Virus record (IMG/VR): IMGVR_UViG_3300017963_000223
DNA length: 64,000 nt
Direction: 5' to 3' (one strand)
DNA from: a virus
Taxonomy: Duplodnaviria; Heunggongvirae; Uroviricota; Caudoviricetes
Positions within the stretch are counted from its first letter, which is position 1, and each line of letters begins with the position of its first letter. Positions 11,635 through 64,000 of the stretch are shown here, piece after piece. Under the pieces are notes generated by a model. That model saw nothing but the letters and a program-made list of their open reading frames with translations, was not told where the DNA came from and did no database searches. The translations under genes were made by a program, and so were the position numbers.

Positions 11635-11668
11635 GCCCAACCGGCTTAGGGCCGGATTCGATAGCGTA

Positions 11669-11699: not shown

Positions 11700-11703
11700 C
11701 CTT

Positions 11704-11776: not shown

Positions 11777-11816
11777 CTACTGTTTGACAGTATCGGACTT
11801 TCTTTGGAGATTTCAC

Positions 11817-12107
11817 ATGGCATGGGCCGACCGATTTCAAGCCGACGCGATCATTGAGCCTTCGGGCTACAGGAAGGTCACTTCTCTCTCGTCAGCCAAG
11901 GGTGTGCTGATCGGCGAAGGTCGTGTCGCACTTATTCAAGCAATCAATCAAAATGTGCGTTACCGTGATGACGGCGTCGACCCGACCGCCAACACAGGGA
12001 TGGTGCTGTTCGCAGGTCAAAGTATCTGGTACACTGGCGATCTACGCGCCATCCGGTTCATTGAGGAAGCAGTAGGGGCCGAAGTCAACATCCTGACGTA
12101 CAAATGA
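11817..12107 (+). CDS. hypothetical protein (96 aa)
   Basis: ATG 11817 with GGAGA RBS 7 nt upstream; ORF table entry 11784 is upstream extension. Confidence 0.5.
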   Translation: MAWADRFQADAIIEPSGYRKVTSLSSAKGVLIGEGRVALIQAINQNVRYRDDGVDPTANTGMVLFAGQSIWYTGDLRAIRFIEEAVGAEVNILTYK

Positions 12108-31162: not shown

Positions 31163-31755
31163 TGGAGCCATGCAAGAAGCGACAGAAGATCGTCAAGAAA
31201 CCGAGCAACGAAGTTCGTTTCCGCTGCATGAATGATAAGTGCAGTTTCATGGGCAACGTCGTGGATGAAGGCATCTGTTCTAGGTGTCCTGTCCGTGCGA
31301 AGGAGCATAAGAAGCCCTGCGCAATTCGACGTAAGCAAGTCCGTAAGCAGCCCGCCCCCGCTCCTGGAGTCTTCCCAACAGAGGAGATGCTGAATATCAG
31401 CGACGAAGAAGTTCGGGAGATGATTCAAGACGCTGGGCTTGACATGGAGGAGTTGGAGCAGGAGGTGCTCCAACGAGAGCCCACGCCGGAGGGCGAGGTC
31501 CCCAGCTACCCGCCACTCTCCATGCAGGCGTGGTTCTACAAGGAGGCACTCATACGCTGGAACAAGGCAGGGAGGCCAAAGCGGTCGGACGACGAAGTGA
31601 GGGAGCTTCTCGACGGCCACTGCAAAGTGTGCTCGTGGTTTGACGCTGAGAAGAACCGCTGCAAAGGTTGTGGCTGTGCTATCTCTGAAAGTTCGATTGC
31701 CATCTTCAACAAGCTCCGGATGGGGACCGAGCACTGCCCACAGGAGAAATGGTGA
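31162..31755 (+). CDS. Cys-rich (two zinc-ribbon-like clusters) protein
   Basis: CxxxC...CSRC and CKVC...CKGCGC motifs. Confidence 0.45.
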   Translation: MEPCKKRQKIVKKPSNEVRFRCMNDKCSFMGNVVDEGICSRCPVRAKEHKKPCAIRRKQVRKQPAPAPGVFPTEEMLNISDEEVREMIQDAGLDMEELEQEVLQREPTPEGEVPSYPPLSMQAWFYKEALIRWNKAGRPKRSDDEVRELLDGHCKVCSWFDAEKNRCKGCGCAISESSIAIFNKLRMGTEHCPQEKW

Positions 31756-32315
31756 TGGAAGCTGCTTTCGCTTGGCTTGGTCAGATATTCGAGGCGTTGC
31801 TTGAGTTCGTGCCGCGTCGGATCATCGTGCGTGCGACCGAGGGAGGAGTCAAGTGGAGCCTGTGGCGGGAGCCCAAGGAGGTGAAGCCCGGTATCCGAAT
31901 TTACTGGCCCTTCATCTCAGATGTTGAAGTGATTGTGACGGCGAGGCAATCATTCAACACCCCTCACGAGCCGTTGCAAACGAACGACGGTATTGAGGTC
32001 GTGGCGGGTGGCGTCGTTGTCTACAACATCAACGACGTTGTGCGGGCGATCGGCAAACAGAACTGGTCGCCAGAGAACACCGCCCAAGACATTGTCCAGG
32101 CGGTGCTTGCTGACGTTGTGATCTCTCATTCGCACGATGACCTTCTGGCCGGTTTGAGTGGCGAGATCGAGAAAGAGATCACTGAGAAGTGTCGAAAGCA
32201 GTTGAGGAAATACGGCGTGTACGTCGAGCGAGCAGGGCTATGCGCCTTTTCTTCGACCCGCAACTGGCATCACTCAGGCATCAACATTCAGGTGAATCAT
32301 GGCGAAGAAGTGTAG
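31749..32315 (+). CDS. SPFH/band-7 (stomatin/prohibitin-like) domain protein
   Basis: Segment IEVVAGGVVVYNINDVVRAIGKQNW...AQDIVQAVLADVVISHSHDDLLAG...KYGVYVERAGL matches SPFH-domain pattern. Confidence 0.5.
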   Translation: MVMEAAFAWLGQIFEALLEFVPRRIIVRATEGGVKWSLWREPKEVKPGIRIYWPFISDVEVIVTARQSFNTPHEPLQTNDGIEVVAGGVVVYNINDVVRAIGKQNWSPENTAQDIVQAVLADVVISHSHDDLLAGLSGEIEKEITEKCRKQLRKYGVYVERAGLCAFSSTRNWHHSGINIQVNHGEEV

Positions 32316-32431: not shown

Positions 32432-33049
32432 CTATCCGTGAAGGAACCGCATGATCGAGGCGTACAGCTTTGCTGTCGCAATGCAGTCGGCTAAAGCGTC
32501 GTGTGCATTGTCGAGTGTGATGTCGAACTTCTTACACAAGTCTCCAAGGTTGACGAAGCCGAAGGGCGGTTTCCGGCCATGCCACGAATACAGGTCGTCG
32601 ATGCTGGACGCTAGCGTCATCGTGTCTCTGGCTGTCGACTGCCACAACTCGTTGAACCCCTCCATACCGAGCCAGGGAATGAGCATCGAACGCTCAAACG
32701 CCCAGTTGTGTGCCAGAGGAATCAGTCGCTTTTTGTGCGGCAGATTGAGCTTCCGGAACCAGTCGTGGAACAGTTCGATCGCTTGCTCCTGAGAGGGGCA
32801 GCCTTCAAGGCTTTCCAGTGTGATGCCGTGCTTTCGAGTGGCCCCAGCATTGATCCTCTCTGGGTGATCCGGATAGATGTTCATGTAGAAGAACCTCTTC
32901 TCCGGGTCCGGTTCGAGATGCTGGTTGAGCGGCAGCACCGCGATCTGAATGATCTCATGCCACCCAGGCAGCGTGCCGGTCGTCTCCACATCCACTGCAC
33001 ACATACAGTGGCCCCATTGACTTTGTAGTCCTGGCATCACGGCCTCCAC
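32432..33049 (-). CDS. DnaQ-like DEDDh 3'-5' exonuclease
   Basis: Exo motifs AVDVETTG (I), HNWAFE (II), HDALAD (III). Confidence 0.65.
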   Translation of the reverse strand: MEAVMPGLQSQWGHCMCAVDVETTGTLPGWHEIIQIAVLPLNQHLEPDPEKRFFYMNIYPDHPERINAGATRKHGITLESLEGCPSQEQAIELFHDWFRKLNLPHKKRLIPLAHNWAFERSMLIPWLGMEGFNELWQSTARDTMTLASSIDDLYSWHGRKPPFGFVNLGDLCKKFDITLDNAHDALADCIATAKLYASIMRFLHG

Positions 33050-33777
33050 ATCGGGGCAAAGTATTGGGCAACAAGGGCGTCGAACGCCTCGCTGCGAGGG
33101 GCGTCCAATATGACGAATTTGATCTCCTTAGTTTCATCCTGACAGGGCGGGGCCTCGGGACCGATCGGGACGTCGAAGATTTCGCCACAGGCAACGCACT
33201 CTCGTCCATGGTCCGTCAGCCATGTGAAATCAAAGCCACACTTTGGGCATTCACCGTCTATGACTGCCTCATCCCACTCGAATTCAAGCTCACAAGTGTG
33301 TGTAAATTTGACGTCATCAAACGGGGAGATGTACCATGTTGAGTCTGGCGGATCACCATCGCACTCGGCAGCCCATCCTTCAACGGCCTTTTCGTCCTGC
33401 TTCTCCTCCTTGGCCTCCCGCTTCTTCTTCTCCTCGGCCCAGTGTTTGGCACATCCGGCCCAAATCTCATCGTCGCGAGCGGGCAGTTCGGGGTAGTTGA
33501 GTTCGAGCAGGGCACACATGTTCCACACCGCATGGGCGATGTGCAGACAGCCGGTGTCCGGGTCGTAGACTTCGCCGTTGAAGATGTAGTTCAGGTGGCG
33601 GAACATACTGTTCCAATACTCATCGTCCGGCTTGTTGCCTAGTCGCCAGTTGCCGTCATTGTACTTGATGGCTCCCATCTCTTTCACTCGGGCGATCGCT
33701 TCCGCCATTCTAGGGAAGCTCCGCATGAAGTAAGACATCATGGGCTTGTCGTCATTGAAACGTAAGGCTTCACTCAT
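33037..33777 (-). CDS. phage dNTP pyrophosphohydrolase-like (DUF5664-like) N-terminal domain protein with C-terminal zinc ribbon
   Basis: KYNDGNWRLG...HIAHAVWNMCALLE motif recalled from phage dATP/dGTP pyrophosphohydrolase family; CPKCG...CVACG. Confidence 0.4.
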   Translation of the reverse strand: MSEALRFNDDKPMMSYFMRSFPRMAEAIARVKEMGAIKYNDGNWRLGNKPDDEYWNSMFRHLNYIFNGEVYDPDTGCLHIAHAVWNMCALLELNYPELPARDDEIWAGCAKHWAEEKKKREAKEEKQDEKAVEGWAAECDGDPPDSTWYISPFDDVKFTHTCELEFEWDEAVIDGECPKCGFDFTWLTDHGRECVACGEIFDVPIGPEAPPCQDETKEIKFVILDAPRSEAFDALVAQYFAPMWRP

Positions 33778-39445: not shown

Positions 39446-39957
39446 GCGGCGTAGCCTTAGTACAGTTTTCCGATGTCGATCTGAAGACCTTGCTGCCTAT
39501 TGGCCGGGAGGCGTTCGATCGAAACCTTGCGGCCAATGCCGATAGCCAAGGGCATGAGCCTCCGTTGCATCACATGCTGTGCGTCGCAGGGATGAAGAAC
39601 CCGCAGGCGAAGACAGCCGAGGACACCCGGCCGTATGCCAACCTTTTCCACGCTGGCTTTCTGATCGTGTGCAACGATCGTGATGCTGCTGAAATCTTGG
39701 AGGTGGCGGGTATGCCGTCCGTCATGGTAGAGACAGTTGAGCGGGGATACGTCGCCCTCTTCATCTCAGGCTCGGTCGCACAGTGGCGGGAGGCCGTGCT
39801 GCGTGGCTGCCAGCCGGAGGTAAGCCGGGGCACCCGGCAGATCTACAACGGGGTCTATACGAAGTTCAAGTCAATGGGACTAGCCGGTCTGTTCAACGTG
39901 AAGTCCAAACCGAGCCGCCGCGACCAAACTTTCCTTTTGGAATACAAACCCTCTTGA
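39442..39957 (+). CDS. hypothetical protein
   Basis: ATG 39442 overlapping upstream stop; table ORF 39427 is extension. Confidence 0.45.
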   Translation: MSGVALVQFSDVDLKTLLPIGREAFDRNLAANADSQGHEPPLHHMLCVAGMKNPQAKTAEDTRPYANLFHAGFLIVCNDRDAAEILEVAGMPSVMVETVERGYVALFISGSVAQWREAVLRGCQPEVSRGTRQIYNGVYTKFKSMGLAGLFNVKSKPSRRDQTFLLEYKPS

Positions 39958-39986
39958 CACAAGCCACTCCGTATGGTATACTTGAG
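39954..39986 (+). promoter_or_regulatory. phage promoter copy 1: TTGACA-N17-TGGTATACTTGA
   Basis: TTGACA 39954-39959, TATACT 39977-39982; ATG of SNF2 gene at 39990 (leaderless-like). Confidence 0.6.
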
Positions 39987-39989
39987 ATA

Positions 39990-41912
39990 ATGATTGAATC
40001 CATCAAGCTAGTAACGACGACTCCCAAAGGCACCAAGCTGAAGGTGCCCGCGAAGATTGAGCGCACTGAAGGTCGCATCTTCTTTGTGCAGTCGCCCTTT
40101 CACTTGAAGGACGAGATCAAGGCGATGAAGGGCTCGAAGTGGCACGGCTACATGCCGGGCGACGGGCGGAAGATGTGGTCCGTCGAAGACTGCTGCCGCA
40201 ACAACTTCCAGCTTGACTTCATGCAGGGCGGGAACCCCTACGCCAACTGGGATCAGCCACTGCGGAACTTCGGGTACTCCCGCCCACTGTTCGACCACCA
40301 GAAGCTGATGGCCGATCACTGCCTGACGTACCACTACAAGATTCTTGCGGCCGAGATGGGCGTGGGCAAAACCCTATCCGCGATCGAGGTGATAGAGAAG
40401 TCCGGGGAGCTTGACTGGTGGTGGGTGGCTCCCAAGTCGGGCCTCGCTGCCGTTGAGCGGGAGTTCGAGAAGTGGAACCTTCAAGTGACCCCACGGATGC
40501 TGACCTACGATCGGCTCCGCATTGAGATGGAACGGTGGCAGTCTGGCGACCCGGCCCCTCGCGGCGTCATCTTTGATGAGTCCTCCCGGCTCAAGACGGC
40601 CACGTCCAAGCGGACCAAGGCCGCCATGCACCTTGCCGACAGTGTTCGGGCCGAGCACGGCTGGGACGGCTACGTGATCCTCATGTCCGGAACACCCGCT
40701 CCCAAGTCGCCTGTCGATTGGTGGGCGCAGGCTGAGGTCTGCTATCCAGGGTTTGTTAAGGAAGGCAACATCAAGGCCTTTGAGTGGCGGCTCGCCATCT
40801 TCGAGAAGCACATCACATCTGCCGGAGAGTTCTGGAAGCGGAAGACCTGGAGAGATGATGAGAACAAGTGCAACAAGTGTGGCGAGTACGCGGACCATGA
40901 AAGTCACACCCTGGATGAGATGGACGAGATGTTTGGCAACGAAGCCAGTCACGAGTTCGAGCCCAGCAAGAACGAGGTGGGCTATCTCCGTCCACGACTG
41001 GAAGGCCTAGTCCTCCCGCTCGCCAAGAAGGACTGCTTGGACATCCCAGAGAAGATCTACCGTGCTGTCGAATTGTCTCCGACCTCCACGATCAAGCGAG
41101 TCGGGAAGGCCCTGGCCAAGTCCGCCATCTCCGCGATCCAAGGCCTCACATGGCTGCGGGAACTGAGCGACGGGTTCCAGTACAACCAAGTACAGAGCGA
41201 GAAAGAGCCCCTCATCACTTGCCCGGTATGCAAAGGCGCCAAGGAAGTCAAGCAGTGGTTCAATCGTCACACCAACGAGCTTGCCTACATCGACCCGAAC
41301 CTGGCGGTAGATGAAGACGACTATGAACTGCGAATGGATACATGCCCCCGTTGCGAAGGCGACGGGATGGTCCCGAACATGGTCCGCGAGACCAAGGAGA
41401 TTCGATGTCCAAAGGACCAAGCCTGTCGTGACCTGCTGGAAGAGAACGAAGACCAAGGGCGCATCGTGTTCTTCGCAGGCTTCCAGGGCTCGATCGATCG
41501 CATCGTCGCCCTCTGCCACAAGCATCATTGGAATGTTGTGAAGGTCGACGGGCGTGGCTGGAAGATCTTGCCGTGCGGTGACGAGAAGACGCCGAAGAAG
41601 GTGAAGCCGTTAAGCTACTGGGCCAACCTGGACAACGAGCGTGTCGCGTTCGTCGCCCACCCAGAGTCGGGTGGTATGGGGCTCACGTTAACGGAGGCTC
41701 GCATGGCAGTCTTCTACTCGAATGACTTCAAGCCGGAGAGCCGGATGCAGGCCGAGGATCGTATCCATAGGCCGGGCATCGACGAGAACAAAGGTGCAAC
41801 CATCGTCGACCTGTTCCATCTCGGGACGGATCGTAAGGTGCTTAACGTGTTACGCGATAACCGCAGACTGGAACAGATGACTCTTGGAGAGATGAGGGCT
41901 ATGGTAGAATGA
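39990..41912 (+). CDS. SNF2-family DNA helicase with internal zinc-ribbon insertions
   Basis: Walker A AAEMGVGKT, DExx FDESSRL, helicase-C region; CNKCG and CPVC...CPRC insertions. Confidence 0.7.
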   Translation: MIESIKLVTTTPKGTKLKVPAKIERTEGRIFFVQSPFHLKDEIKAMKGSKWHGYMPGDGRKMWSVEDCCRNNFQLDFMQGGNPYANWDQPLRNFGYSRPLFDHQKLMADHCLTYHYKILAAEMGVGKTLSAIEVIEKSGELDWWWVAPKSGLAAVEREFEKWNLQVTPRMLTYDRLRIEMERWQSGDPAPRGVIFDESSRLKTATSKRTKAAMHLADSVRAEHGWDGYVILMSGTPAPKSPVDWWAQAEVCYPGFVKEGNIKAFEWRLAIFEKHITSAGEFWKRKTWRDDENKCNKCGEYADHESHTLDEMDEMFGNEASHEFEPSKNEVGYLRPRLEGLVLPLAKKDCLDIPEKIYRAVELSPTSTIKRVGKALAKSAISAIQGLTWLRELSDGFQYNQVQSEKEPLITCPVCKGAKEVKQWFNRHTNELAYIDPNLAVDEDDYELRMDTCPRCEGDGMVPNMVRETKEIRCPKDQACRDLLEENEDQGRIVFFAGFQGSIDRIVALCHKHHWNVVKVDGRGWKILPCGDEKTPKKVKPLSYWANLDNERVAFVAHPESGGMGLTLTEARMAVFYSNDFKPESRMQAEDRIHRPGIDENKGATIVDLFHLGTDRKVLNVLRDNRRLEQMTLGEMRAMVE

Positions 41913-42076
41913 GACTCGATGACTTTCTCAATCGATTGGAATGCTTAGGCGAGACGGACTCTGAAGTCTGCATCGAAGTGAACGGCATTGTTCATGTGGT
42001 GCAAGACGTGTACGATGACTCGCAAGGCATCACTATTGTTGTCGACACTGACGCCGAAGAGAGGGCGATGCGGTGA
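41909..42076 (+). CDS. small acidic protein (55 aa)
   Basis: ATGA overlap with SNF2 stop. Confidence 0.3.
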   Translation: MRLDDFLNRLECLGETDSEVCIEVNGIVHVVQDVYDDSQGITIVVDTDAEERAMR

Positions 42077-42081
42077 GGCGA

Positions 42082-42273
42082 ATGATAGTGTTCAAAAGAC
42101 CTGATGGTGTTCGATTCGCGATCGCCGCTCCCGATATTCGACAAGTTTTTCAACGGGCTGACCTTGTCTCATGTGACATTTTCTTCCTGGATTCCAAGAA
42201 AACATTACATACAGAAGTCGTCTCCGGTACATTCGACAACATCATAACTCGAATTGAAGAGAACACCGAATGA
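42082..42273 (+). CDS. small protein (63 aa)
   Basis: ATG with GAGG 4 nt upstream; stop overlaps next start. Confidence 0.35.
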   Translation: MIVFKRPDGVRFAIAAPDIRQVFQRADLVSCDIFFLDSKKTLHTEVVSGTFDNIITRIEENTE

Positions 42274-43463
42274 GATGTACAGCTACCACCTGCCCTGCGT
42301 GCGGCTCAAACGACGTTGAACTGTTGATTGACATGGGCGAGCAGCCGATGTCCCTTGTCGCGTTGGAGAAAGACCCACACCACTCCAAGGTGCAGGAGTG
42401 TTATCCTATCGTGATGCTAATCTGTCGAAACTGCACACACGTCTTCAATAGCGAGTACAAGAGCGAGAATGTCAAGTACACGGCCGCAGGCTGCCGCATG
42501 TTCAATGCTGGGTCTGGGTGGCAAGAGCATATCAACGATGTCTATCAAATGCTGCATCCGATCACGGCAGATGAGGCTCTTGATCTGGTAATTGAGATCG
42601 GGGCAGGTGACTGCGAGTTTCTTGCGGGTATTGACACTAAGGCCGGGAAGATCGCGGTCGATCCGTGCGAGTCGGTACTGAATGCCGCGAGGTATGGCTT
42701 CACATTCTATCGCGAGCACTTCGATCCGGTTCAGCACATCCCCAGAGGAGCGGGGAATGTGCTTCTTGTTTTGCGACATTTGCTGGAGCACTTTGAGCGT
42801 CCTCGCGACATCCTTGAAAGTATCGCCCGCGCCACCAAGGCTCGGCCTAACCCGTCCATCCTCTACATCGAGGTGCCGTCGTGTGAGAATGCTCTTCGCC
42901 GATGTCGCATTGAAGACTGGACCTACGAGCATCCACAGCACTTCACTGTAGGCAGCATGCGGGCTTTGCTCCGGTCAGCCGGGCTCGATCACTTCATCGT
43001 GTTGCCGAAGTATAGTGGTGAGGTTCTCTCAGTCATCGTGAAGATTGCACCGGAGGAGCCCCACGACTCCGACCTATGTACCGATCTTGTCCTTATGGAC
43101 TATGAGCGGATGGAGCAAAACATCGCACGAGAGATGGGCTGGATGCGTCATCATTCTCTCAACACGGTCTTCTGGGGCGGGGCGGGTAAGTCGGCGATGT
43201 TCATTCGCAAGTTCCACTTGCCGGAAGATGACACGACTGTCGTTGATAGTGATGAAGAGAAGTGGGGCATGTGCGTTCCCGGCACCGGCATCAAGATTCA
43301 GCCACCGAACATCCTTTATCATGTTCGGCCAGATTACGTCATCGCCACAACGTCGTGGCGAGCGGACGACATCCGAGACGAGATCGTTCGTGATGACATC
43401 CCATGTAAAACGCTCCTCAAATTTGAGGGCGGAGAATTGAGGGAGGTTCCTCTTGGCAGGTAA
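42270..43463 (+). CDS. SAM-dependent methyltransferase of the sugar C-methyltransferase type (N-terminal zinc ribbon + class I MTase + C-terminal domain)
   Basis: N-terminal CPACGS...QPMSL...CRNC zinc-binding motif, motif I VIEIGAGDCEF; architecture as in NDP-hexose C-methyltransferases (TylCIII-like). Confidence 0.65.
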   Translation: MRCTATTCPACGSNDVELLIDMGEQPMSLVALEKDPHHSKVQECYPIVMLICRNCTHVFNSEYKSENVKYTAAGCRMFNAGSGWQEHINDVYQMLHPITADEALDLVIEIGAGDCEFLAGIDTKAGKIAVDPCESVLNAARYGFTFYREHFDPVQHIPRGAGNVLLVLRHLLEHFERPRDILESIARATKARPNPSILYIEVPSCENALRRCRIEDWTYEHPQHFTVGSMRALLRSAGLDHFIVLPKYSGEVLSVIVKIAPEEPHDSDLCTDLVLMDYERMEQNIAREMGWMRHHSLNTVFWGGAGKSAMFIRKFHLPEDDTTVVDSDEEKWGMCVPGTGIKIQPPNILYHVRPDYVIATTSWRADDIRDEIVRDDIPCKTLLKFEGGELREVPLGR

Positions 43464-45339
43464 GAAGCCCACGAAGCACCAGAAACGGATCATCAAGAAC
43501 AGGAAGCAAAAGGCCGTCCGCCAGCGCAAGGACCGCCGTGCTCAGCCCATCTGCTTGCCGCCACCCAGCCCGGAAGTCGGAATCCCTGATTTCGATCTCG
43601 CCTTGGCCTATGATTTGATCTCCCGTAGCGACCCTCGGGTGTGGAGTGAGTTCCTCAAATATCTTGGGTGGTTTGAGCAGCATCACTATCTCAAGTTCGG
43701 ACGGGAAGCGATCAAGTGCCTGAACAGATTTGCTGCCGCTTTTAGCGCGGCGATCGCCAAGGAGGACTGCCTGCCTCCGTCAGATGAAGCTATCAACTTG
43801 ATTCAGTCCAATCACTTGATACACCACCTCGTTGCATCGTCGTCGTATCAGGACTGTGACACCTTGTTGGACATGTCTCTCGGCCTGCAAAACAACTTGC
43901 CGAAGCTTCTCATGTTGCAGAACCCTCGCTGCAAGATTCAGATCGACCAGAAGAAGTTCTTTGACATGGAACCCTGGCTGGCGTCGCTCTGGTTCAACTC
44001 GTACCCGCTCGGCATCTCGTCGCCGACGGAGTTGATCCAGAAGAACATGTACCGACACTTTGAGTGCATGGACGAGCGGTGGGTGCCAACAACCCACGTC
44101 GTCTCCGGCCTCTACTTCTCCTGCACCTATCATAACCCGGCAGCGGTCCCTCGCGTCAAGCGGATCATCAACAAAGCGATCAAAGCCAGCCGAAAGAGAT
44201 GTCCGAAGTTTGTGAACAATCCGAATCCGGACTCGGTTGCCATCATCACGAACAAGTGGCATCGAAACCACGCGGTCTACAAGTCCGCCTCTCCCCTGGT
44301 AGAGCAGTTGGTTGGTAAGAAGCGGCTGACTCTCATCTGGTGCGGTGACAAGGACTCCATGCCGGACACGACTGTCACCAACTACTTCAACCAAGTTGCT
44401 CACTGTTACTTCCAGTCGAATGGCGAACTGATCATTCCGGCCGAGTTGCAGAGCAATGACTTTGGGATGATCTACTTCCCCGACATTGGTATGAGTGACG
44501 AATCTATCTGGCTGTCGAACTGTCGGATGGCGCCGATCCAGGCCGTCGGCTATGGCCACCCCGACACGACGGGCGAGGGCAACGAGATCGACTACTTCGT
44601 TGGCGGTCAGGTTGAGGCCGACTCAGCCGACTTCTACTCGGAGACAATGGTTCTGCTTCCTGGCTTGGCACAAGAGCCCGCTTGGCCGACCGCCCCTCGG
44701 CAGAACAACTACAAGGACGATGGAGTAGTGCGGGTCAATTGCGTGTGGGGCCCGGACAAGTACAATTTCTCCCTGCTGTCTATGCTCAAAAAGATCAACG
44801 AAGAGGTCGCCAAAATCGACCCTGAGTCGAAGCATGAGTTTCACTTGTTCGCCAGCCCCGGCATCAATCGATACGCAGCGCTGCCGCCATTCAGTCGTGA
44901 GATCGCACAACTCCTGCCCAACGCGGTGCTTCACTCTGAGCAGGAATACTTCGACTACATGGTCAACGCCGAGATGCACGACTTCGCCCTGAACTCGTTC
45001 CCGTTCGGCTGTTACAACGTGTTGATCGAGAGCCTGTACATGGGTCTGCCCTTCCTCTCGCTCGTTGGCGAGAGATTCTACAACCGGGCGGGCATGTACT
45101 TGAACGAGCAGGTTGGCATGGACGAGAACAACTTCCATGATCCGGTGGAGCTTATCGAGAAAGCGGCCGAGTTGATCACCAACCCTGATGAGTTGAGGCG
45201 TCAGAGAAGCCATCTGGCATCCATAGACCTGAAGGAGCGGCTCTTCACGCTGAAGGGAGATCACTTCCTCGAAGCAGTGGAATATATGCAAGAAAATCAC
45301 CCCTTCACAGAGACGAAGAAGATCGGAGTTGACGCATGA
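43453..45339 (+). CDS. glycosyltransferase, GT41 (O-GlcNAc-transferase-like) catalytic domain
   Basis: C-terminal HDFALNSFPFGCYNVLIESLYMGLPFLSLVGERFYNRAGMYLNEQVGMDE resembles OGT-family motif LDTFPYNGHTT..D.LWMGVPVVT..GE.FASRV; start codon uncertain (TTG 43453; first in-frame ATG is far downstream). Confidence 0.5.
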   Translation: MAGKKPTKHQKRIIKNRKQKAVRQRKDRRAQPICLPPPSPEVGIPDFDLALAYDLISRSDPRVWSEFLKYLGWFEQHHYLKFGREAIKCLNRFAAAFSAAIAKEDCLPPSDEAINLIQSNHLIHHLVASSSYQDCDTLLDMSLGLQNNLPKLLMLQNPRCKIQIDQKKFFDMEPWLASLWFNSYPLGISSPTELIQKNMYRHFECMDERWVPTTHVVSGLYFSCTYHNPAAVPRVKRIINKAIKASRKRCPKFVNNPNPDSVAIITNKWHRNHAVYKSASPLVEQLVGKKRLTLIWCGDKDSMPDTTVTNYFNQVAHCYFQSNGELIIPAELQSNDFGMIYFPDIGMSDESIWLSNCRMAPIQAVGYGHPDTTGEGNEIDYFVGGQVEADSADFYSETMVLLPGLAQEPAWPTAPRQNNYKDDGVVRVNCVWGPDKYNFSLLSMLKKINEEVAKIDPESKHEFHLFASPGINRYAALPPFSREIAQLLPNAVLHSEQEYFDYMVNAEMHDFALNSFPFGCYNVLIESLYMGLPFLSLVGERFYNRAGMYLNEQVGMDENNFHDPVELIEKAAELITNPDELRRQRSHLASIDLKERLFTLKGDHFLEAVEYMQENHPFTETKKIGVDA

Positions 45340-46604
45340 CGATATTGAACAAGGACACAGTAGCGAAGATCAAAGACCACCTGATTCGCAAAGACCTGAC
45401 CCAGAAACAGATCGGCCAGAAGTTCGGAGTCAGCCGATCGGTCATCAGCGACATTGCGTGTGGGCGGGTCCACAAGGGTGTGAAGCCTTCCAATGAGGCC
45501 ACCCCTGAAGAATCTGAGATCTTCAAGCTGCAAGCGGAGGTCACCCACTTACGTGAAGAGCGAAACGACGCCCGACGCAAGCTGAAGGCCGCCGCGAAGA
45601 CGCAGGGGTTGTTTGATGCGATCACTGAAGAGATCGAAAGCACGATCGTTCCGATGCGTCCTCTCCCTCCTGCTCGTCGGACACTTGAAGCCCCGGCCAA
45701 ACAGTTGACCGAGCACCTTGTCCTGCACTTGTCGGACGGGCATCACGATCAGGTAGTCACCCGCGAGGACACGGGCGGCCTGGAAGAGTACAACTTTCCC
45801 ATCAGCCTCTGCCGCGCGGAGCAGTTGGTCGACACGACCATCAAGTTCACGCAGCAGACGCTGGCCTCAACCTACAGCTTCCCCACCTTGACGGTGCTGG
45901 CCTACGGTGATCACACCAGCGGGGAGATTCACGGAGCCGTCCGTCGAAGCTACTTCAAGAACTGCTTCAAGAACTGCCACGCGACAGGTCAGTTGCACGC
46001 CTTGATGTATCGCGACTTTGCTCCGTACTTTCAGCAGATCAATGTGATCTATGTGCCTGGCAATCACGGTCGCCGCACTCAGAAAAAGGATTACCATGGT
46101 GCCCATGACAACTGGGACTACCTGATTGCCAAGATGGCTCAGATGTACTGTCGAGGAATCGACAACATCAACTTCGTGATCCCAAATGCCTTTTCCGCTG
46201 TCGTCGACATTGACGGCGTGGGCTTCCACATCAGCCACGGGGACGACATTCGCTCGCAGTTGGGCATCCCGTGGTATGGTTTGGAGAAGCGGAAGCATCG
46301 CCTCATGGCTCTCGAAGGGGTTCGCCAAGGCGTCCCCATCAAATACTACTGTTGCGGACACTTCCATCGTCCCGGCACGACGACCGAGATCGATGGCGAG
46401 TTGATCCTGAACGGAGCGTGGCCTGCCACTGATGCTTATGCGTTCAACGCGCTGGGCGGGTTCACGGAGCCAAACCAGTTGATCCACGGTGTCAACAAGA
46501 AGTATGGCATTACGTGGAGGCTCCCAGTGAAGCTTCGCTGCGAGTACGAGAAAACAGGGCCGCGACGTTACCGGCTCGAAGACATGGACGAAGTTTCTAT
46601 CTAA
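45336..46604 (+). CDS. HTH DNA-binding domain fused to calcineurin-like metallophosphoesterase
   Basis: HTH KQIGQKFGVSRSVISDIACG; MPP motifs LSDGHHD, GDHTSGE, VPGNHG, SHGD, GHFH. Confidence 0.6.
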   Translation: MTILNKDTVAKIKDHLIRKDLTQKQIGQKFGVSRSVISDIACGRVHKGVKPSNEATPEESEIFKLQAEVTHLREERNDARRKLKAAAKTQGLFDAITEEIESTIVPMRPLPPARRTLEAPAKQLTEHLVLHLSDGHHDQVVTREDTGGLEEYNFPISLCRAEQLVDTTIKFTQQTLASTYSFPTLTVLAYGDHTSGEIHGAVRRSYFKNCFKNCHATGQLHALMYRDFAPYFQQINVIYVPGNHGRRTQKKDYHGAHDNWDYLIAKMAQMYCRGIDNINFVIPNAFSAVVDIDGVGFHISHGDDIRSQLGIPWYGLEKRKHRLMALEGVRQGVPIKYYCCGHFHRPGTTTEIDGELILNGAWPATDAYAFNALGGFTEPNQLIHGVNKKYGITWRLPVKLRCEYEKTGPRRYRLEDMDEVSI

Positions 46605-46628: not shown

Positions 46629-47351
46629 ATGGCTGGTGTTATTGCGACTCTTTTGACAAGTGCCAAGGCGATTTCCAAAGTGGACGCCGGTAATCGGGCC
46701 AAGCAGCGTCATGCTTATGACGAACTGATCCAGTTACAGGGCAAGGGCGATCCGACCCTGGCGTCACCTTACCTTGCCGCATCGGCAGTATCGACTATCG
46801 CCGCCAACGGCGGCACAAGCGGCAACTTCAAGATCACCATCAACTTCCCTGAGCAGAGCGTTGCTGTTACGACGGCGAACATTGCTTACAACGCGGCTGA
46901 GGCCGCGATCCAGTCGGCAATTGACACGGCGTTGAATGGTCAGACGATCAAGGCCACTTATGTGGCAGGGCATGTTGATGCCGGGTCTTGTGCAAACATG
47001 GCTTCGGCTTCGTGTAACATCACGGCCAACGGTGCGTCTGTCAATCAGGCTCACATGGTTGTGACGACCACGAATGTTGATCTTGACGTGGCGGCCCCTG
47101 CTGTAACGGTGGTGACGGTCGGAACGATCAACCGCCCGGCGGAAGCCATCCTTGCTCTCTACAGTTGTCTCACCCCGGCGTCGGCACCTTTGGGGTATGG
47201 CATCACCCCTGGGGAGAGCGATTACGAGGTCGGCGGCAACCCGCTCAGCCTCAGTCCTGGTTTGAAGGACCTGCTTGTGACGGAGGTGGAAGTCACCGAG
47301 AACGAGGTGCTGGGTCAATTCTTCCGCACCCAGATCGAATGCGTGGGCTAA
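46629..47351 (+). CDS. Ala/Thr-rich hypothetical protein
   Basis: RBS taggaggcc; followed by terminator. Confidence 0.5.
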   Translation: MAGVIATLLTSAKAISKVDAGNRAKQRHAYDELIQLQGKGDPTLASPYLAASAVSTIAANGGTSGNFKITINFPEQSVAVTTANIAYNAAEAAIQSAIDTALNGQTIKATYVAGHVDAGSCANMASASCNITANGASVNQAHMVVTTTNVDLDVAAPAVTVVTVGTINRPAEAILALYSCLTPASAPLGYGITPGESDYEVGGNPLSLSPGLKDLLVTEVEVTENEVLGQFFRTQIECVG

Positions 47352-47391: not shown

Positions 47392-47424
47392 AGCGGCAGC
47401 ATCGCAAGGTGCTGCCGCTTTTTC
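47392..47424 (+). terminator. rho-independent terminator agcggcagca...tgctgccgct + TTTTCC
   Basis: 10-bp stem, T-tract. Confidence 0.6.
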
Positions 47425-47436: not shown

Positions 47437-47468
47437 TTGACTTTCTGGCTCCATGTGGTATACTTGAT
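47437..47468 (+). promoter_or_regulatory. phage promoter copy 2 (TTGACT-N16-TGGTATACTTGA)
   Basis: -10 TATACT 47459-47464; RBS AGGAG then ATG 47482. Confidence 0.6.
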
Positions 47469-54721: not shown

Positions 54722-54794
54722 TGTACAGTAGCTCAATGGGTAGAGCACCTGACTGTTAATCAGGTGGTTGCTGGTTCAAGTCCAGCCTGTACAG
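54722..54794 (+). tRNA. tRNA-Asn (anticodon GTT)
   Basis: Acceptor TGTACAG/CTGTACA, D-stem GCTC/GAGC, anticodon stem CCTGA/TCAGG loop CTGTTAA, T-stem GCTGG/CCAGC loop TTCAAGT. Confidence 0.8.
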
Positions 54795-54813
54795 CTAACC
54801 CTGGAGACCTGAG

Positions 54814-56773: not shown

Positions 56774-57190
56774 GTGGAACCGAAGAAGTTCAGGAGCAAG
56801 ACCGGCCCGGAAGCCATCATCCAGCGGGAGTTCATCAGCTACCTGAAAGACAGGGGGTGGCATGTTGAAAGAATGATCGGGAACCAACTACAGAAGGGCA
56901 TCCCCGACATTTACATCATGCACCCGTCGCACGGCTGCCGCTGGATCGACTTGAAGAACCCGATTGACTATGAATTCACCCGAGCACAGAGAATCAAATG
57001 GCCGATCTGGGAAGCCCACGGCATCGGCATCTGGATCATAACGGGCTGGTCAGATGAGGACTACGCGAAACTTTGGAAGCCGCCGAACTGGCGAGAGTAT
57101 TGGAAGCCGAAATACGATGAAGAGGCTGAGGAACTAGCACAATCATTGCAGGAACTGTTTGATGAATTTGAAGAAGACAATCTTGCTTGA
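56774..57190 (+). CDS. VRR-NUC (PD-(D/E)xK) nuclease domain protein
   Basis: GIPDIYIMHP...RWIDLK motif; GTG start. Confidence 0.5.
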   Translation: MEPKKFRSKTGPEAIIQREFISYLKDRGWHVERMIGNQLQKGIPDIYIMHPSHGCRWIDLKNPIDYEFTRAQRIKWPIWEAHGIGIWIITGWSDEDYAKLWKPPNWREYWKPKYDEEAEELAQSLQELFDEFEEDNLA

Positions 57191-57794
57191 CCTGGACGGC
57201 GTGCTGATCGACATGGTCGTGCCTCTTATGCAGTGGTGGGGCGTCCGCATCACAGGTGAAGCACAGTACCCGCGAGACTTTGGGTGGGATGTGAAAGGCG
57301 CCATCTCCTACGCCCTGGAAATACAGGGAAGGAGAAACAAGTCGAAGACCGTCCATGATATGTCGAGAAAGGAATTTTGGCACACTATGCCTTACTCCTT
57401 CTGGCGAGATCTTCTGCCCTATCCGACAGTCGATGCTTTTGTTAGGTTCCTTGAGCAGCAGGGGCTGGACATATACTTTATGACAGCCCACGCTAACCCC
57501 GACTGCGCCTCCGCCAAGCTGAATTGGATCAATGACTACTTCCCGAGGTATTGGGATCGAGTTCTCGTCGGCCACCCGAAGCATCTCGCTGCCAACTCGC
57601 AATCGATCCTGATTGATGACAGTGACAAAAACTGCGACGACTTTATAGCGGCCGGAGGCTTGGCCATTCTATGTCCGAGACCTTGGAACAGGAGGTGGGG
57701 CGAGTCGAGAGGTTTCAATTCGTGCCCTGAACCACGTCCCCTGGAACATGATACTGTTATCAAAAACCTCTACGAAATCGCGGAGCGGCTATGA
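57159..57794 (+). CDS. HAD-superfamily 5'(3')-deoxyribonucleotidase-like hydrolase
   Basis: HAD motif I LLDLDGVL; later IDDS. Confidence 0.55.
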   Translation: MMNLKKTILLDLDGVLIDMVVPLMQWWGVRITGEAQYPRDFGWDVKGAISYALEIQGRRNKSKTVHDMSRKEFWHTMPYSFWRDLLPYPTVDAFVRFLEQQGLDIYFMTAHANPDCASAKLNWINDYFPRYWDRVLVGHPKHLAANSQSILIDDSDKNCDDFIAAGGLAILCPRPWNRRWGESRGFNSCPEPRPLEHDTVIKNLYEIAERL

Positions 57795-62200: not shown

Positions 62201-63037
62201 ATGCTTGACAAACTAGTGAACAAACATGGGCAGGTGATTGAAGGCTCAGAAAACTATGAGCCCAAAAAGACACACCTTGACCTATTCAAGGCGCTGGCTG
62301 CTCAGCCTGATGACACTCGTGGTATGAAGCAGGCTTTGCTGATTCTATCGACGCCTCGTTGCGGGTCGACTCTCTTCTGCGAGGCGCTGAACAACACTCG
62401 TCAGCTTGGCGTCGCTGACGAGTGGCTGAACTATGAATACTTCTCTGCCTGGGCGGCCGTTCTTGATTTGAACCACTTTGACTTGAACGAGTACATGACC
62501 TGGGTTTCCCGAAAAACGATGCGAAACACCGGGGTGCTGGTGATCAATTGGCATGTCGGTCAGATCATCGCCATGAACCATGATTTTGGTCTCGGCCTTC
62601 AATCGATAGACTTCAAGAAGATCGTCTATCTGACACGACGAGACAAGATTGCTCAGGCTGTGTCTCTTGCGAAAGCGATTGTCACGAACCAATTCCGCTC
62701 GTATGAGGAAGCCGAGGAGAGTCCAGACAAGGAAGGCGGGCTTTCGCTTCCGTCGATCGCCAAGTCCTTGTACAGTATCACCGATTTCGACGGTGTCGTC
62801 CGCACCCACTTCAGCAAGGAGATTGACTACACCTGGGACTATGAGGACTTCAGACAACTCGGCAGCGACACAGTTCCGCCGCACGAAAGCTATGAGATCA
62901 TCTTGAGAGAATTCGGCGGCGTCCCTCAACCTTGCTATTCGGCAGGCAATTTGAAGAAGCAGGGAGGTGATGAAAACGCGCAAGCTGCCGCCCGCTTTCT
63001 GAAATACATCACAGGAGAGCCCAATGAGAACGATTGA
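62201..63037 (+). CDS. Stf0-like sulfotransferase
   Basis: N-terminal LLILSTPRCGSTLFCEALNN...G..DEWLNYEYF matches Stf0/sulfotransferase PAPS-binding P-loop region (..RSGSTLL.E.L...G..GEP.E.F). Confidence 0.55.
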   Translation: MLDKLVNKHGQVIEGSENYEPKKTHLDLFKALAAQPDDTRGMKQALLILSTPRCGSTLFCEALNNTRQLGVADEWLNYEYFSAWAAVLDLNHFDLNEYMTWVSRKTMRNTGVLVINWHVGQIIAMNHDFGLGLQSIDFKKIVYLTRRDKIAQAVSLAKAIVTNQFRSYEEAEESPDKEGGLSLPSIAKSLYSITDFDGVVRTHFSKEIDYTWDYEDFRQLGSDTVPPHESYEIILREFGGVPQPCYSAGNLKKQGGDENAQAAARFLKYITGEPNEND

Positions 63038-64000
63038 AAAACTGTCGCCCACCAGCCTGCATTTGTGGGAAAGAGACCGCGACGGCTTCTACGTGAAGTA
63101 CCTCTCTGAGGCGCCCAAACCGTGGGAGCCTCAAACCGAGGCGATGACAATTGGTAGTGCGTTTGACGCCTTCGTTAAGTGCTCGCTGCATTATCACTTG
63201 TTTGGCCACGACGGCGACGGTGAGTACGATCTCAAGACGCTACTGGAGAAGCAGTGCCAGGTCGCTGAATTGAGGCCTTGGGCTTGGGAAGCTGGCAAGT
63301 ACGCCTTCGACTGTTACCGCACATGGGGTTGTTACGACGAACTGCTTAGCGAGTTGCAACAGAGCGAGGAAGACCCTCAGTTTGAGTTTGAGCTACGCGG
63401 AACAGTCGGGGGCGTGCCCCTTGTCGGCAAGCCTGACTTGTGGTATCGCAAGACTATCCAAGTCATCTATGACTGGAAGGTGATGGGCTTCTGCTCACGC
63501 CATCCACAGTCTCCGAAAAAGTTCTACAAGACATGCCGTGATTGCTGGGGCGATGATCGTGCGAAACCGACTCGCGGTTTCAAAGGCAAGCCTTTGGCGC
63601 ACAAAGGCTACAAGGAGATCGACCACCACGGCCATAAGATCGGTGGCCACTTCCTTGAAGAGGTCGACAAGAAGTGGGCGGATCAAATCGCGATCTACGG
63701 GTGGATGTCCGGTGTGTCAGTTGGAGATGAAGACACTGTGGTGGGTATCGACCAACTGGCCTGCAAGCCGTCACCTGACCCTGACAAAGAACGGTTCCCG
63801 CTTATCCGGGTGGCTCAGCATCGTTGTCGTATTTCGCATGTCTATCAGCAGCAGCTTGTCGCCCGCTTGCAAGATTGCTGGAATCAGATTCAGTCCGGGT
63901 GGATTTTCCCCGACTTGTCCCGTGAGGAAAGTGACGAGCGGTGCGAAATGATGGACTTGCAGCTTCAGGGCGACGCCGCTGGATTCAGTAAAGAGGCTGT
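63024..64000 (+). CDS. PD-(D/E)xK family nuclease (Cas4/RecB-like), 3'-truncated by window end
   Basis: Open frame from ATG 63024 to window end; motif GKPDLWYRKTIQVIYDWKV; multiple Cys. Not in ORF table because no stop in window. Confidence 0.5.
   Translation, partial: MRTIEKLSPTSLHLWERDRDGFYVKYLSEAPKPWEPQTEAMTIGSAFDAFVKCSLHYHLFGHDGDGEYDLKTLLEKQCQVAELRPWAWEAGKYAFDCYRTWGCYDELLSELQQSEEDPQFEFELRGTVGGVPLVGKPDLWYRKTIQVIYDWKVMGFCSRHPQSPKKFYKTCRDCWGDDRAKPTRGFKGKPLAHKGYKEIDHHGHKIGGHFLEEVDKKWADQIAIYGWMSGVSVGDEDTVVGIDQLACKPSPDPDKERFPLIRVAQHRCRISHVYQQQLVARLQDCWNQIQSGWIFPDLSREESDERCEMMDLQLQGDAAGFSKEA

Follow-up and report, generated by a model that had tools for sequence, protein, structure and literature searches.

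A phage-borne gene pair encoding a sugar C-methyltransferase-type enzyme and an NGT-like GT41 glycosyltransferase, with a predicted cytoplasmic acceptor

The 64,000 nt of tailed-phage DNA analyzed here (hereafter the window; the pieces studied centre on positions 42270–46604) carry two adjacent genes, one for an enzyme of the NDP-sugar 3-C-methyltransferase type (MT) and one for an HMW1C/NGT-like glycosyltransferase of family GT41 (GT), which, judging from their sequences and genomic neighborhoods, form a real functional pair, inseparable across a deep phage clade. We propose, with about even confidence, that this two-gene cassette passes a tailored NDP-ketosugar to a cytoplasmic acceptor, most probably a protein. 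According to this proposal MT would methylate a host-made NDP-4-keto-(6-deoxy)hexose, while GT would take the MT-tailored sugar, or a close relative of it, as the donor and would glycosylate a soluble cytoplasmic acceptor, probably a protein, at sites selected by a rule other than the canonical sequon. The substrate of MT is taken as host-made because genes for a sugar kinase, nucleotidyltransferase or dehydratase are lacking in the phage, and a protein is regarded as the most probable acceptor because all GT41 enzymes characterized so far act on proteins and GT retains the all-α domain that binds peptides.

Genomic context of the MT-GT pair

The phage identity of the window is backed by genes for terminase, portal, tape measure and PolA. 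The three plus-strand ORFs of MT, GT and an HTH-metallophosphoesterase (EXO) were confirmed (397, 628 and 422 aa, respectively; Table 1); GT begins with a TTG codon 11 nt inside the end of MT, and GT and EXO overlap by 4 nt. The putative promoter, which is a consensus match only, agrees with the consensus at 11 of 12 positions and has the top score in the region, and the terminator-like hairpin is followed by the next promoter-like site at 47437–47464. The 55-aa ORF preceding MT is kept in 6 close relatives, while p240 has no match in Pfam, PHROG or PDB and follows EXO in no more than 10 close relatives. Such an arrangement indicates that the MT-GT cassette is translationally coupled and transcribed with replication genes from a predicted host-type promoter. 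Neither enzyme of the pair has predicted transmembrane segments, i.e. both are expected to be soluble.

Table 1. Coordinates of the predicted operon components and of the sulfotransferase gene in the window
Feature	Position	Strand	Basis
Putative sigma-70-like promoter of the operon	39954..39982	+	TTGACA-17-TATACT, extended-10 TG; 8 nt 5' of SNF2 start 39990
SNF2-family helicase, operon gene 1	39990..41912	+	Pfam SNF2-rel_dom + Helicase_C; phrog_62 5e-51
Two small ORFs (55, 66 aa) between SNF2 and MT	41909..42273	+	stop/start codons overlap
MT, NDP-sugar 3-C-methyltransferase type	42270..43463	+	Pfam, family profile, Foldseek
GT, HMW1C/NGT-like GT41 glycosyltransferase	43453..45339	+	phmmer, family profile, AF2/Foldseek
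EXO, HTH + metallophosphoesterase nuclease	45336..46604	+	phrog_284 1.4e-37; five motifs
p240, Ala/Thr/Val/Gly-rich, last operon gene	46629..47351	+	ORF; no family match
Intrinsic-terminator-like hairpin ending the operon	47392..47419	+	12-bp stem, 8 GC pairs, T-run
Stf0-family sulfotransferase	62201..63037	+	Pfam PF09037 2e-11; PAPS-binding motifs

MT is located directly upstream of GT in 38/38 IMG/VR loci, with GT identity down to 30%, and the same order recurs in the loci L003 and L013. The pair is present also on two cellular-looking contigs (L088 and L093), and its members are close neighbors in L082; in L088 it adjoins genes for a GHMP kinase, an NTP-transferase, an NDP-sugar epimerase/dehydratase and a HAD hydrolase. 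Nine phage relatives possess a second GT41, and in distant relatives a small metallophosphoesterase and an RNA ligase flank the pair. In the wider GT family we found fusions or adjacencies with GT4, GT14, Methyltransf_23 and sulfotransferase domains, which by sequence is the pattern of glycan-building enzymes; with such partners, it is plausible in principle that methyl, glycosyl and sulfo chemistry are combined on a single glycan. Some of the fused relatives carry a bare Methyltransf_23 only, without the sugar C-methyltransferase C-terminal domain, and one bacterial homolog adjoins a PKMT-like protein methyltransferase.

The GT subfamily is large, with >150 cluster representatives at at least 295 bits (with this profile ApNGT reaches 143 bits). 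It has essentially no members in 185,579 reference genomes and is thus not prophage-borne. The initial annotation considered this gene content unusual for a phage, which was borne out by the lack of any match for it in INPHARED and of any NGT-like fold in BFVD. The co-occurrence in relatives, suggested there as a check, held for MT, which always accompanies GT in the 38 loci, and was not seen for the Stf0-like sulfotransferase, which turned up in no relative examined.

Domain architecture and active sites of MT and GT

The earlier prediction of a TylCIII-type sugar C-methyltransferase is well supported. MT passes the Pfam cut-offs of Methyltransf_14 (28.8 vs 23.5) and Methyltransf_23 (27.1 vs 27) and stays slightly below that of Methyltransf_13 (31.1 bits vs 31.3), all three matches being colinear. 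The profile of the MT family matched MtmC (4rv9, 2e-26) and TcaB9 (3ndi, 2e-14) over positions 2–347, and the best 18 Foldseek matches were all sugar C3-methyltransferases, with an E-value gap of 11 orders of magnitude to any other methyltransferase. The three-domain architecture of NDP-sugar 3-C-methyltransferases is complete in MT: a Cys4 zinc ribbon (C8, C11, C52, C55), a class I SAM Rossmann domain with the motif EIGAGD at 109 and, at the C-terminus, a nucleotide-binding-like domain (GGAGKS at 303, DSDEEKWG at 326), whose motifs are common to MtmC and TcaB9. MT residues H174, E220 and H221 align with H181, E224 and H225 of TcaB9, and are invariant both in the alignment of 27 phage family sequences and in a 26-sequence alignment that adds a bacterial homolog. 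Two other residues, Y76 and Y222 of TcaB9, correspond to C75 and T218, so that three of the five probed active-site residues are conserved.

Genes supplying an NDP-4-keto-hexose (nucleotidyltransferase, 4,6-dehydratase) were found neither in the window nor in L041 or 80 phage loci (tblastn and Pfam lists; 73 kb), hence the phage would depend on the host. The missing separate ketoreductase is not decisive, since the nearest relative of MT with a solved structure, MtmC, combines 4-ketoreductase and 3-C-methyltransferase activities in one enzyme (PMC10269268). We note as points against our preferred explanation that Y76 and Y222 of TcaB9 are not kept, and that no source of the NDP-4-keto sugar is seen in the 73 kb or in the 80 related loci.

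GT comprises a polybasic N-terminal tail (aa 1–30), an all-α domain (aa ~49–245) and a GT-B catalytic domain (aa ~254–600). Pfam Glyco_transf_41, one of the families named in the initial annotation, gave no match, and HMW1C_N alone appeared, under its cut-off (18.6 bits). The phmmer search retrieved NGT structures at ~3e-24, and the GT family profile matched ApNGT at 6e-41 over ~500 positions. The AF2 model (pLDDT 90.3) exhibits TM-scores of 0.72–0.78 to ApNGT/AaNGT (3q3e, 8j30, 8p0o in the PDB) according to Foldseek, compared with ~0.5 to OGT or SPY, and Pfam detected no TPR repeats. Thus, sequence comparisons and the model agree that GT is a GT41-like enzyme, as proposed earlier, of the HMW1C/NGT subfamily and not, as the likeness to O-GlcNAc transferase would have it, of the TPR-bearing OGTs.

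The predicted donor site of GT (K436, H273, G368-H369, N522, E526, Y502) is invariant in 36 family members and corresponds to K441, H277, G370-H371, N521, D525 and Y501 of ApNGT, where the roles of the nucleotide-sugar-site residues have been described (PMC10507012, PMC10466321). The counterpart of ApNGT H495 is ambiguous: H494 of GT is invariant and is displaced by two residues in the alignment. In NGTs the acceptor dyad Arg177/Asp215 reads the +2 Ser/Thr of N-X-S/T, and the R177A and D215A variants are inactive (PMC10507012). The position of Asp215, aligned at high posterior probability, is occupied by Gly219 in GT and by G (18), S (9), C (4), A (2) or N (1), and never by Asp, in the 36 family members; Asp is missing from this column also in seven homologs at a greater distance, encoded on non-viral contigs from metagenomes. 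In the column of Arg177, where the alignment is unreliable, there is no conserved basic residue. The lack of the sequon-reading Asp215 suggests that the acceptor rule of GT differs from N-X-S/T; with Asp215 replaced and the counterpart of Arg177 not located, Asn itself is no more than a candidate for the residue that is modified. No enrichment of N-X-S/T was detected among 49 window proteins and the capsid protein (maximum z 2.35), and no adhesin-like gene is located near GT. The glycosylation of virion proteins is possible, with no sequon enrichment in the protein sequences to point to it. The polybasic tail, which is Lys/Arg-rich and whose net charge ranges from +6 to +12, is a feature of most GT family members and is missing from the shorter, more distant ones; we know of no NGT with such a tail.

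Or perhaps the two enzymes divide the labor differently, GT transferring an ordinary host sugar (e.g. glucose from UDP-Glc) and MT methylating the attached sugar or the acceptor? We consider this unlikely. The UDP-binding residues of those NGTs that use UDP-Glc are preserved in GT, the phage is devoid of ketosugar-supplying genes, the two tyrosines of TcaB9 are not conserved in MT, and the stand-alone Methyltransf_23 fusions without the C-terminal domain, as well as the bacterial homolog beside the PKMT-like enzyme, would agree with such a scheme; however, MT retains all three domains, the C-terminal motifs of MtmC and TcaB9 and the H/E-H triad, and its bacterial ortholog in L088 has genes for a kinase, a nucleotidyltransferase and a dehydratase as neighbors. 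The bare Methyltransf_23 fusions by themselves are compatible both with methylation that follows the transfer and with tailoring of the donor.

Alternative targets and neighboring genes

The initial annotation suggested nucleic-acid hypermodification as one of the possible functions. In this scenario GT would attach the sugar tailored by MT to phage DNA, or to RNA/tRNA, as a means of evading host nucleases, similarly to the T4 glucosyltransferases, whose substrate is freshly replicated DNA. MT and GT indeed reside inside a replication operon, between SNF2 and EXO and upstream of PolA, most GT members exhibit the Lys/Arg-rich tail, a metallophosphoesterase and an RNA ligase are found beside the pair in distant relatives, and the phage encodes nucleotide-pool enzymes (a MazZ-like protein, NT5C, MazG and dCMP deaminase). 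On the other hand, the 73 kb examined of the 93.7-kb contig yielded neither a hydroxymethylase of the thymidylate-synthase type nor TET/5mYOX nor a C5-methyltransferase, one relative possesses an ordinary ThyX, and the shorter, more distant GT members have no polybasic tail. All characterized GT41 enzymes act on proteins, and the nearest cellular homologs of the pair sit in sugar/glycan clusters rather than in DNA-modification clusters. The known phage DNA glycosyltransferases exhibit other folds, either GT-A (JGT/TarP-like) or T4-BGT-like (bioRxiv 10.1101/2023.12.21.572611), while GT is GT41/NGT-like. A nucleic-acid target is therefore quite improbable, and the hypermodification claim is not supported by the gene content. 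The position in the replication operon and the polybasic tail would, as such, fit a nucleic-acid target too.

The neighbors of the pair do not appear to take part in its function. EXO shows weak Pfam matches (Metallophos_2 1.9e-3, HTH_3 3.5e-3), matches the 'exonuclease' family phrog_284 over aa 56–391 and possesses all five calcineurin-like phosphoesterase motifs (DGHH 134, GDH 191, GNH 242, SHGDD 300, GHFH 341), in agreement with the domains annotated earlier; family and motifs identify it as a phage Mre11/SbcD-type metallophosphoesterase nuclease. The upstream SNF2 helicase was likewise confirmed. In ~24 relatives a ParB-SNF2-EXO-PolA backbone, with SNF2 and EXO in the same order, lacks MT-GT (in the loci L015–L040 EXO is present and the pair is absent), which places EXO and SNF2 outside the glycosylation unit. 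Both are, as far as gene order and families tell, replication/recombination genes with no part in the MT-GT function, EXO being co-transcribed with the pair. Consequently SNF2, taken earlier as a hint of DNA modification, represents backbone synteny.

The Stf0-family sulfotransferase annotated at 62201 is genuine by its Pfam match (PF09037, 44.3 bits vs the cut-off of 22; this family and not Sulfotransfer_4) and its predicted PAPS-binding motifs TPRCGST (aa ~51–57) and RRDKIAQAVS (aa ~146–155), i.e. 5'-PSB and 3'-PB, whereas a link with the MT-GT pair is at most hypothetical; a search by sequence found no solved Stf0 homolog. It lies 16 kb from MT-GT, past PolA and ligase, in another gene block, with a PD-(D/E)XK-like nuclease-like ORF, a GNAT and a DNA methyltransferase as neighbors. 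We found no Stf0 in relatives from IMG/VR or in the related loci examined.

The idea that MT, GT, the HTH-phosphoesterase and Stf0 constitute one module acting on a single glycan or nucleic-acid modification, with SNF2 as an accessory, thus survives for the MT-GT pair and is otherwise extremely unlikely. MT, GT and EXO are predicted to be co-transcribed, with overlapping stop and start codons, and sulfotransferase-GT41 fusions and adjacencies are known in the wider family; however, the fusions involve a family other than Stf0, the phage Stf0 has unrelated neighbors, and EXO, with its full Mre11/SbcD-type motif set, belongs to the backbone.

Phages are well known to encode glycosyltransferases that modify O-antigen or teichoic acid, e.g. 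TarP. The pair could accordingly be imagined to alter envelope glycans of the host (LPS, S-layer or adhesins), resulting in a superinfection block or, as proposed initially, in lysogenic conversion, and NGTs do naturally modify surface adhesins before export (PMC10507012), but this has hardly any likelihood in view of the soluble enzymes with no membrane segment, the lack of an integrase among the ORFs scanned, the essential absence of the GT family from the reference genomes and the predicted expression with replication genes of an apparently lytic phage.

Comparison with known glycosylation systems

GT resembles HMW1C, ApNGT and AaNGT in its all-α and GT-B domains, its length of ~620 aa and its solubility, and differs from them in many respects: the identity is 18–20%, Asp215 is replaced by Gly/Ser/Cys/Ala/Asn and Gln469 by Ala/Pro/Gly in the phage family, there are additional invariant acidic residues (D344 and E350) besides the polybasic tail, and the phage enzyme is always paired with a C-methyltransferase-type enzyme and has no adhesin substrate gene nearby. 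NGT genes may be followed by a second, glycan-extending transferase (ngt-agt), to which the second GT41 in nine phage relatives and the GT4 in bacterial relatives bear a likeness. MT shares with MtmC, TylC3, TcaB9 and KijD1 the zinc ribbon, the class I SAM domain and the C-terminal domain, colinear over ~350 residues; unlike them, it shows 17–20% identity to these enzymes, is not surrounded by a deoxysugar pathway, has a GT41 rather than a natural-product GT1 as a partner, and differs in the modeled position of its C-terminal domain (pTM 0.68, TM ~0.5).

In the virion O-glycosylation of mycobacteriophages (Che8-type), phage glycosyltransferases modify phage proteins in the cytoplasm with host nucleotide sugars; these enzymes belong to other GT families, none of them, to our knowledge, GT41 or NGT-like, and they target Ser/Thr-rich extensions at the C-termini of capsid and tail-tube proteins, whereas no such extension or enrichment was found here. 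The phage DNA glycosyltransferases (T4 α/β-GT and those associated with 5mYOX/TET or ThyS) are similar to GT in their broadly GT-B character and early/middle expression with replication genes, and unlike it in being BGT- or JGT-like rather than GT41/NGT-like; moreover, no maker of hydroxymethyl-pyrimidine was found in the 73 kb of our phage that were examined. Another system with virus-encoded cytoplasmic glycosylation is that of the chloroviruses, eukaryotic giant viruses whose capsid N-glycans contain Glc-β-Asn at non-sequon sites and methylated sugars; we know of no identified Asn-glucosylating enzyme of chloroviruses, and the comparison with the phage pair is an analogy that does not include homology.

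It is tempting to speculate that GT, through the amide/imidic-nitrogen chemistry of NGTs, links DNA or RNA directly to a C-methyl-branched sugar, with no hydroxymethyl-pyrimidine intermediate. We regard this as very unlikely; if true, such a direct route (e.g. to an exocyclic amino group or a tRNA base) would represent a new class of nucleic-acid hypermodification, carried out by a polybasic-tailed enzyme of a replication operon. In a milder version, the pair would provide the first cytoplasmic sequon-independent N-glycosylation of a bacterial virus, placing a branched methyl sugar on virion or host proteins.

The MT-GT pair and its genomic setting

MT, a sugar C-methyltransferase-like protein, and GT, an HMW1C/NGT-like protein of family GT41, are an obligate pair: in all 38 IMG/VR loci collected with the GT profile, where GT identity ranges from 65% down to 30%, GT is directly preceded by an MT homolog on the same strand, usually with an overlap. 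A second GT41 paralog is present in 9 of these loci, and the pair is kept despite changed surroundings, as in the phage locus L013, which reads ThyX, RNR, MT, GT, GT, RNA ligase and EXO (the HTH-metallophosphoesterase). The distant GT-bearing phages (L013:3996-9919; L060, L063-L081) carry a 196-aa metallophosphoesterase upstream of the pair and an OB-fold RNA ligase (Pfam RNA_ligase and PHA02142) downstream of it; in the close clade all that is left is a 105-aa protein, located upstream of MT and clustering with the RNA ligase.

The window stems from a tailed phage and corresponds to the 93,682-bp metagenomic contig ena:ERZ27256798:k141_859899; in addition to the features in the table it encodes a scaffold protein, primase, ParB, SNF2 helicase, family A DNA polymerase and ligase. 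Stop/start codon overlaps join SNF2, two small ORFs (p55 and p66), MT, GT and EXO; together with p240, the last gene, these look like one early or middle transcription unit, within which MT and GT appear to be co-transcribed and translationally coupled. The initial annotation had located MT, GT and EXO correctly (all three on the plus strand) and had combined them with SNF2 into a larger modification module. The larger module is disfavoured, as the order ParB-p231-SNF2-EXO-PolA occurs in about 24 more distant phages in which the MT-GT slot is taken by other small genes or by nothing. Thus, MT-GT is an accessory cassette occupying a variable position within the replication module, and EXO and SNF2 are replication and recombination backbone genes. 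EXO matches phrog_284 'exonuclease' (1.4e-37) and possesses all five metallophosphoesterase motifs. PADLOC detected no defence-system similarity for MT, GT, EXO, p240 or Stf0.

Features of the window and of the adjoining 9 kb (L041)
Feature	Position	Strand	Remark
tRNA-Pro(TGG) gene	465-539		
Large terminase	4906-6567		
Portal	6595-8535		
Major capsid protein	10243-11634	+	463 aa
tRNA-Thr(TGT) gene	11704-11777		directly 3' of capsid gene
1121-aa protein	12808-16173		N-terminus weakly Phage_cement_2-like
Tape measure	21099-24566		
SPFH/Band-7 domain protein	31749-32315		Pfam 1.1e-16; at end of structural module
Nucleotide-pool enzymes	33037-33777	-	
	57159-57794	+	
	L041:14074-15947		
Sigma-70-type promoter	39954-39982		near consensus, extended -10; directly 5' of SNF2 start; consensus match alone
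MT	42270-43463	+	
GT	43453-45339	+	
GT N-terminal tail	43453-43545		residues 1-30
EXO	45336-46604	+	
p240	46629-47351		
Strong hairpin and T-run	47392-47419		3' of p240
tRNA-Asn(GTT) gene	54722-54795		
Stf0	62201-63037	+	
Stf0 and following genes	62201-64000; L041:10001-13276		

The longest ORF in the capsid region, a 527-aa minus-strand frame (10240-11823), is spurious, and the true gene there is the capsid gene on the plus strand, whose product has 80 relatives in IMG/VR (48-98% identity). The nucleotide-pool enzymes comprise a MazZ-like protein with a dATP/dGTP diphosphohydrolase domain (PF18909, 2.5e-21), an NT5C deoxynucleotidase, a nucleoside deoxyribosyltransferase-like protein, dCMP deaminase and MazG. 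The MazZ-like gene prompted the idea of a Z-genome, which is unsupported, as no PurZ-like ORF was detected among the scanned proteins. The p240 protein is rich in Ala, Thr, Val, Gly and Asn and appears more structural-like than replication-like; it has no detectable homolog in Pfam, PHROGs or the PDB, and its presence 3' of EXO in 10 close relatives only rules it out as a universal acceptor.

Stf0 is a genuine sulfotransferase, as initially annotated, and shows no positional link to the MT-GT module with which it had been grouped, being located 16 kb downstream of the pair among a PD-(D/E)XK-like ORF, a GNAT, an N6/N4 DNA methyltransferase, dCMP deaminase and MazG. It overlaps the start of the PD-(D/E)XK-like ORF (346 aa, motif GKPDL...DWK), after which follow the GNAT acetyltransferase and the DNA methyltransferase. 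Relatives of Stf0 were found neither in IMG/VR nor in the related loci examined.

Predicted activities of MT and GT

Pfam searches identified three colinear sugar C-methyltransferase domains in MT with marginal scores, and the profile of the MT family (27 members) matched MtmC (4rv9; 2e-26), as well as TcaB9 and KijD1 (about 2e-14), over nearly the whole protein. The best 18 PDB matches of the AlphaFold model (pLDDT 91.6) are all sugar C-methyltransferases of the MtmC/TcaB9/KijD1 type (E 1e-22 to 1e-19), with the next class of methyltransferases coming in at about 1e-8; the low TM-score of about 0.5 reflects a different placement of the C-terminal domain in the model. MT exhibits a Cys4 zinc ribbon, and its invariant residues H174, E220 and H221 align with H181, E224 and H225 of TcaB9, while Y76 and Y222 of TcaB9 are not kept (Cys75 and Thr218 in MT); the roles of the TcaB9 residues are taken in part from the titles of PDB entries.

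The Pfam model Glyco_transf_41 gave no match to GT, the sole match being a sub-threshold one to HMW1C_N. A phmmer search of the PDB, on the other hand, matched residues 149-593 with the cytoplasmic N-glycosyltransferases (NGTs; about 3e-24), followed by XcOGT (1.6e-8) and SPINDLY (about 2e-5), and the profile of 36 GT homologs matched ApNGT over about 500 positions including the all-alpha domain (6e-41). The AF2 model of GT (pLDDT 90.3, pTM 0.88) superimposes on ApNGT and AaNGT with TM-scores of 0.72-0.78, versus about 0.5 on OGTs. With the residue roles taken from studies of AaNGT and ApNGT (PMC10507012, PMC10466321), the donor-side residues are complete and invariant in the GT family: K436 (ApNGT K441), H273 (H277), G368-H369, N522 and E526 (D525). 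The alignments show the predicted cofactor and donor sites of MT and GT to be intact, and GT is predicted to work like a GT41 nucleotide-sugar transferase.

The acceptor side is different. In NGTs, Asp215 reads the +2 Ser/Thr of the N-X-S/T sequon, and its mutation inactivates or relaxes the enzymes (PMC10507012, PMC10466321). At this position the GT family exhibits Gly, Ser, Cys, Ala or Asn, with Asp in 0 of 36 members, and Asp is likewise missing from seven more distant homologs on non-viral metagenome contigs; GT hence lacks a defining residue of an N-X-S/T-specific NGT. In the column of NGT Arg177 the alignment posterior is low and the equivalent cannot be placed. The N-terminal tail of GT is rich in Lys and Arg (net +12 over the first 45 aa) and was modelled as a long helix. 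Its composition, but not its sequence, is kept in most members of the family (net +6 to +12), and the shortest, most distant members lack the tail. A polybasic N-terminal tail is not known from NGTs.

Distribution and the wider GT41 subfamily

MT and GT have become fixed in a deep phage clade whose genomes measure roughly 60-120 kb; the sole hint of the host is a few GT-family members in bins labelled Planctomycetota. A search of GT against 185,579 reference genomes (GTDB) found the family to be almost absent, with just two distant matches on small MAG contigs, and it is therefore not prophage-borne. This near-absence, and the predicted solubility of both enzymes (neither has a predicted membrane segment), disfavour the lysogenic conversion of host surface glycans considered in the initial annotation.

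Among 1.84 billion cluster representatives we detected 586 GT homologs at E <= 1e-30; more than 150 homologs reach 295 bits or more along their full length, versus 143 bits for ApNGT with the same profile, and the phage GT belongs to a large uncharacterised GT41 subfamily. On the cellular-looking contig L088, MT and GT overlap in that order (357 and 552 bits when scored with the phage profiles) and adjoin a GHMP kinase, an NTP-transferase, an NDP-sugar epimerase/dehydratase and a HAD hydrolase, which are predicted to be the genes needed for making an NDP-4-keto sugar. The pair on another such contig, L093, is accompanied by an acetyltransferase, another methyltransferase and a radical-SAM enzyme. 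Two more cellular-looking contigs (L089, L090) combine GT41 with GT4, epimerase/dehydratase, methyltransferase and a TPR-sulfotransferase, and two others (L091, L092) couple it to a sulfotransferase-like protein beside two further glycosyltransferases. Domain fusions of the types Methyltransf_23-GT41, GT4-GT41, Branch(GT14)-GT41 and Sulfotransfer_4-GT41 were also found (homologs P0296, P0318, P0321, P0362 and P0380). From these contexts and fusions we infer that the subfamily primes or builds short, decorated glycans, being a putative, uncharacterised glycan-building toolkit, and that the phage clade captured a minimal MT-GT core.

The wider subfamily also contains proteins in which GT41 is repeated in tandem, two or three times over. 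On a bacterial contig (L086:574-4223), an NGT-like GT41 divergently adjoins a 522-aa methyltransferase with PKMT-type domains (MethyTransf_Reg, WHD_PKMT), a second, independent GT-methyltransferase pairing, there of the protein-lysine type.

Proposed reaction, acceptor and significance

In the proposed reaction, MT would methylate an NDP-4-keto-(6-deoxy)hexose supplied by the host; tblastn searches of the window, the next 9 kb and 80 related phage loci found no kinase, nucleotidyltransferase, dehydratase or GT4 homologs. As MtmC is a bifunctional 4-ketoreductase and 3-C-methyltransferase (PMC10269268), the missing separate reductase gene alone is no argument against sugar-nucleotide chemistry. 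GT would use the sugar made by MT, or a related sugar, to glycosylate an acceptor in the cytoplasm. This acceptor is most likely a protein, because every GT41 enzyme characterised so far modifies proteins and because GT has kept the peptide-binding all-alpha domain. The site rule would differ from N-X-S/T, and N-X-S/T counts compared with shuffles gave no signal of enrichment in 49 window proteins and the true capsid protein. A comparison of the capsid protein with 77 relatives revealed a variable Ala/Thr/Ser/Gly-rich loop (residues 228-262) in the close clade, where Asn236 and Asn248 are invariant (33/33) and are followed at +2 variably by T, A or V. These asparagines were rejected as evidence of glycosylation, given the varying +2 residue and their absence from the distant clade, including one GT-bearing phage.

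Or perhaps GT could modify a nucleic acid? The location of MT-GT in a replication operon, the polybasic tail of GT, and the RNA ligase and phosphoesterase that adjoin the pair in distant relatives would agree with such an acceptor. However, no TET enzyme and no enzyme making hydroxymethyl-pyrimidines occurs among the proteins scanned in the window and the next 9 kb, the cellular relatives of the pair lie in glycan contexts, and the phage DNA glycosyltransferases known so far belong to other fold families (bioRxiv 10.1101/2023.12.21.572611). A protein is still the preferred acceptor. As to the order of the two steps, the Methyltransf_23-GT41 fusions would be consistent with methylation after sugar transfer.

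Phage glycosylation in general is already known, as are both enzyme families. The literature searched holds no description of a phage enzyme related to the cytoplasmic N-glycosyltransferases, neither the region nor GT has a match in 50,697 GenBank phage records (INPHARED; blastn and tblastn), and no NGT-like fold is present in the BFVD collection of predicted viral protein structures. MT-GT forms a compact cassette of two genes, amenable to co-expression and hence to direct testing, and the acceptor-reading residue of the GT subfamily differs from that of the NGTs used in glycoengineering. With a protein as acceptor, phage glycosylation of virion or host proteins would extend to an N-linked-type enzyme, and the family could be a source of NGT variants whose site specificity is relaxed or novel and whose donor is an unusual branched sugar; if the acceptor is a nucleic acid, this would be a new hypermodification chemistry. 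Interest would rise sharply with a nucleic-acid acceptor, or with a demonstration of sequon-independent N-glycosylation of virion or host proteins.
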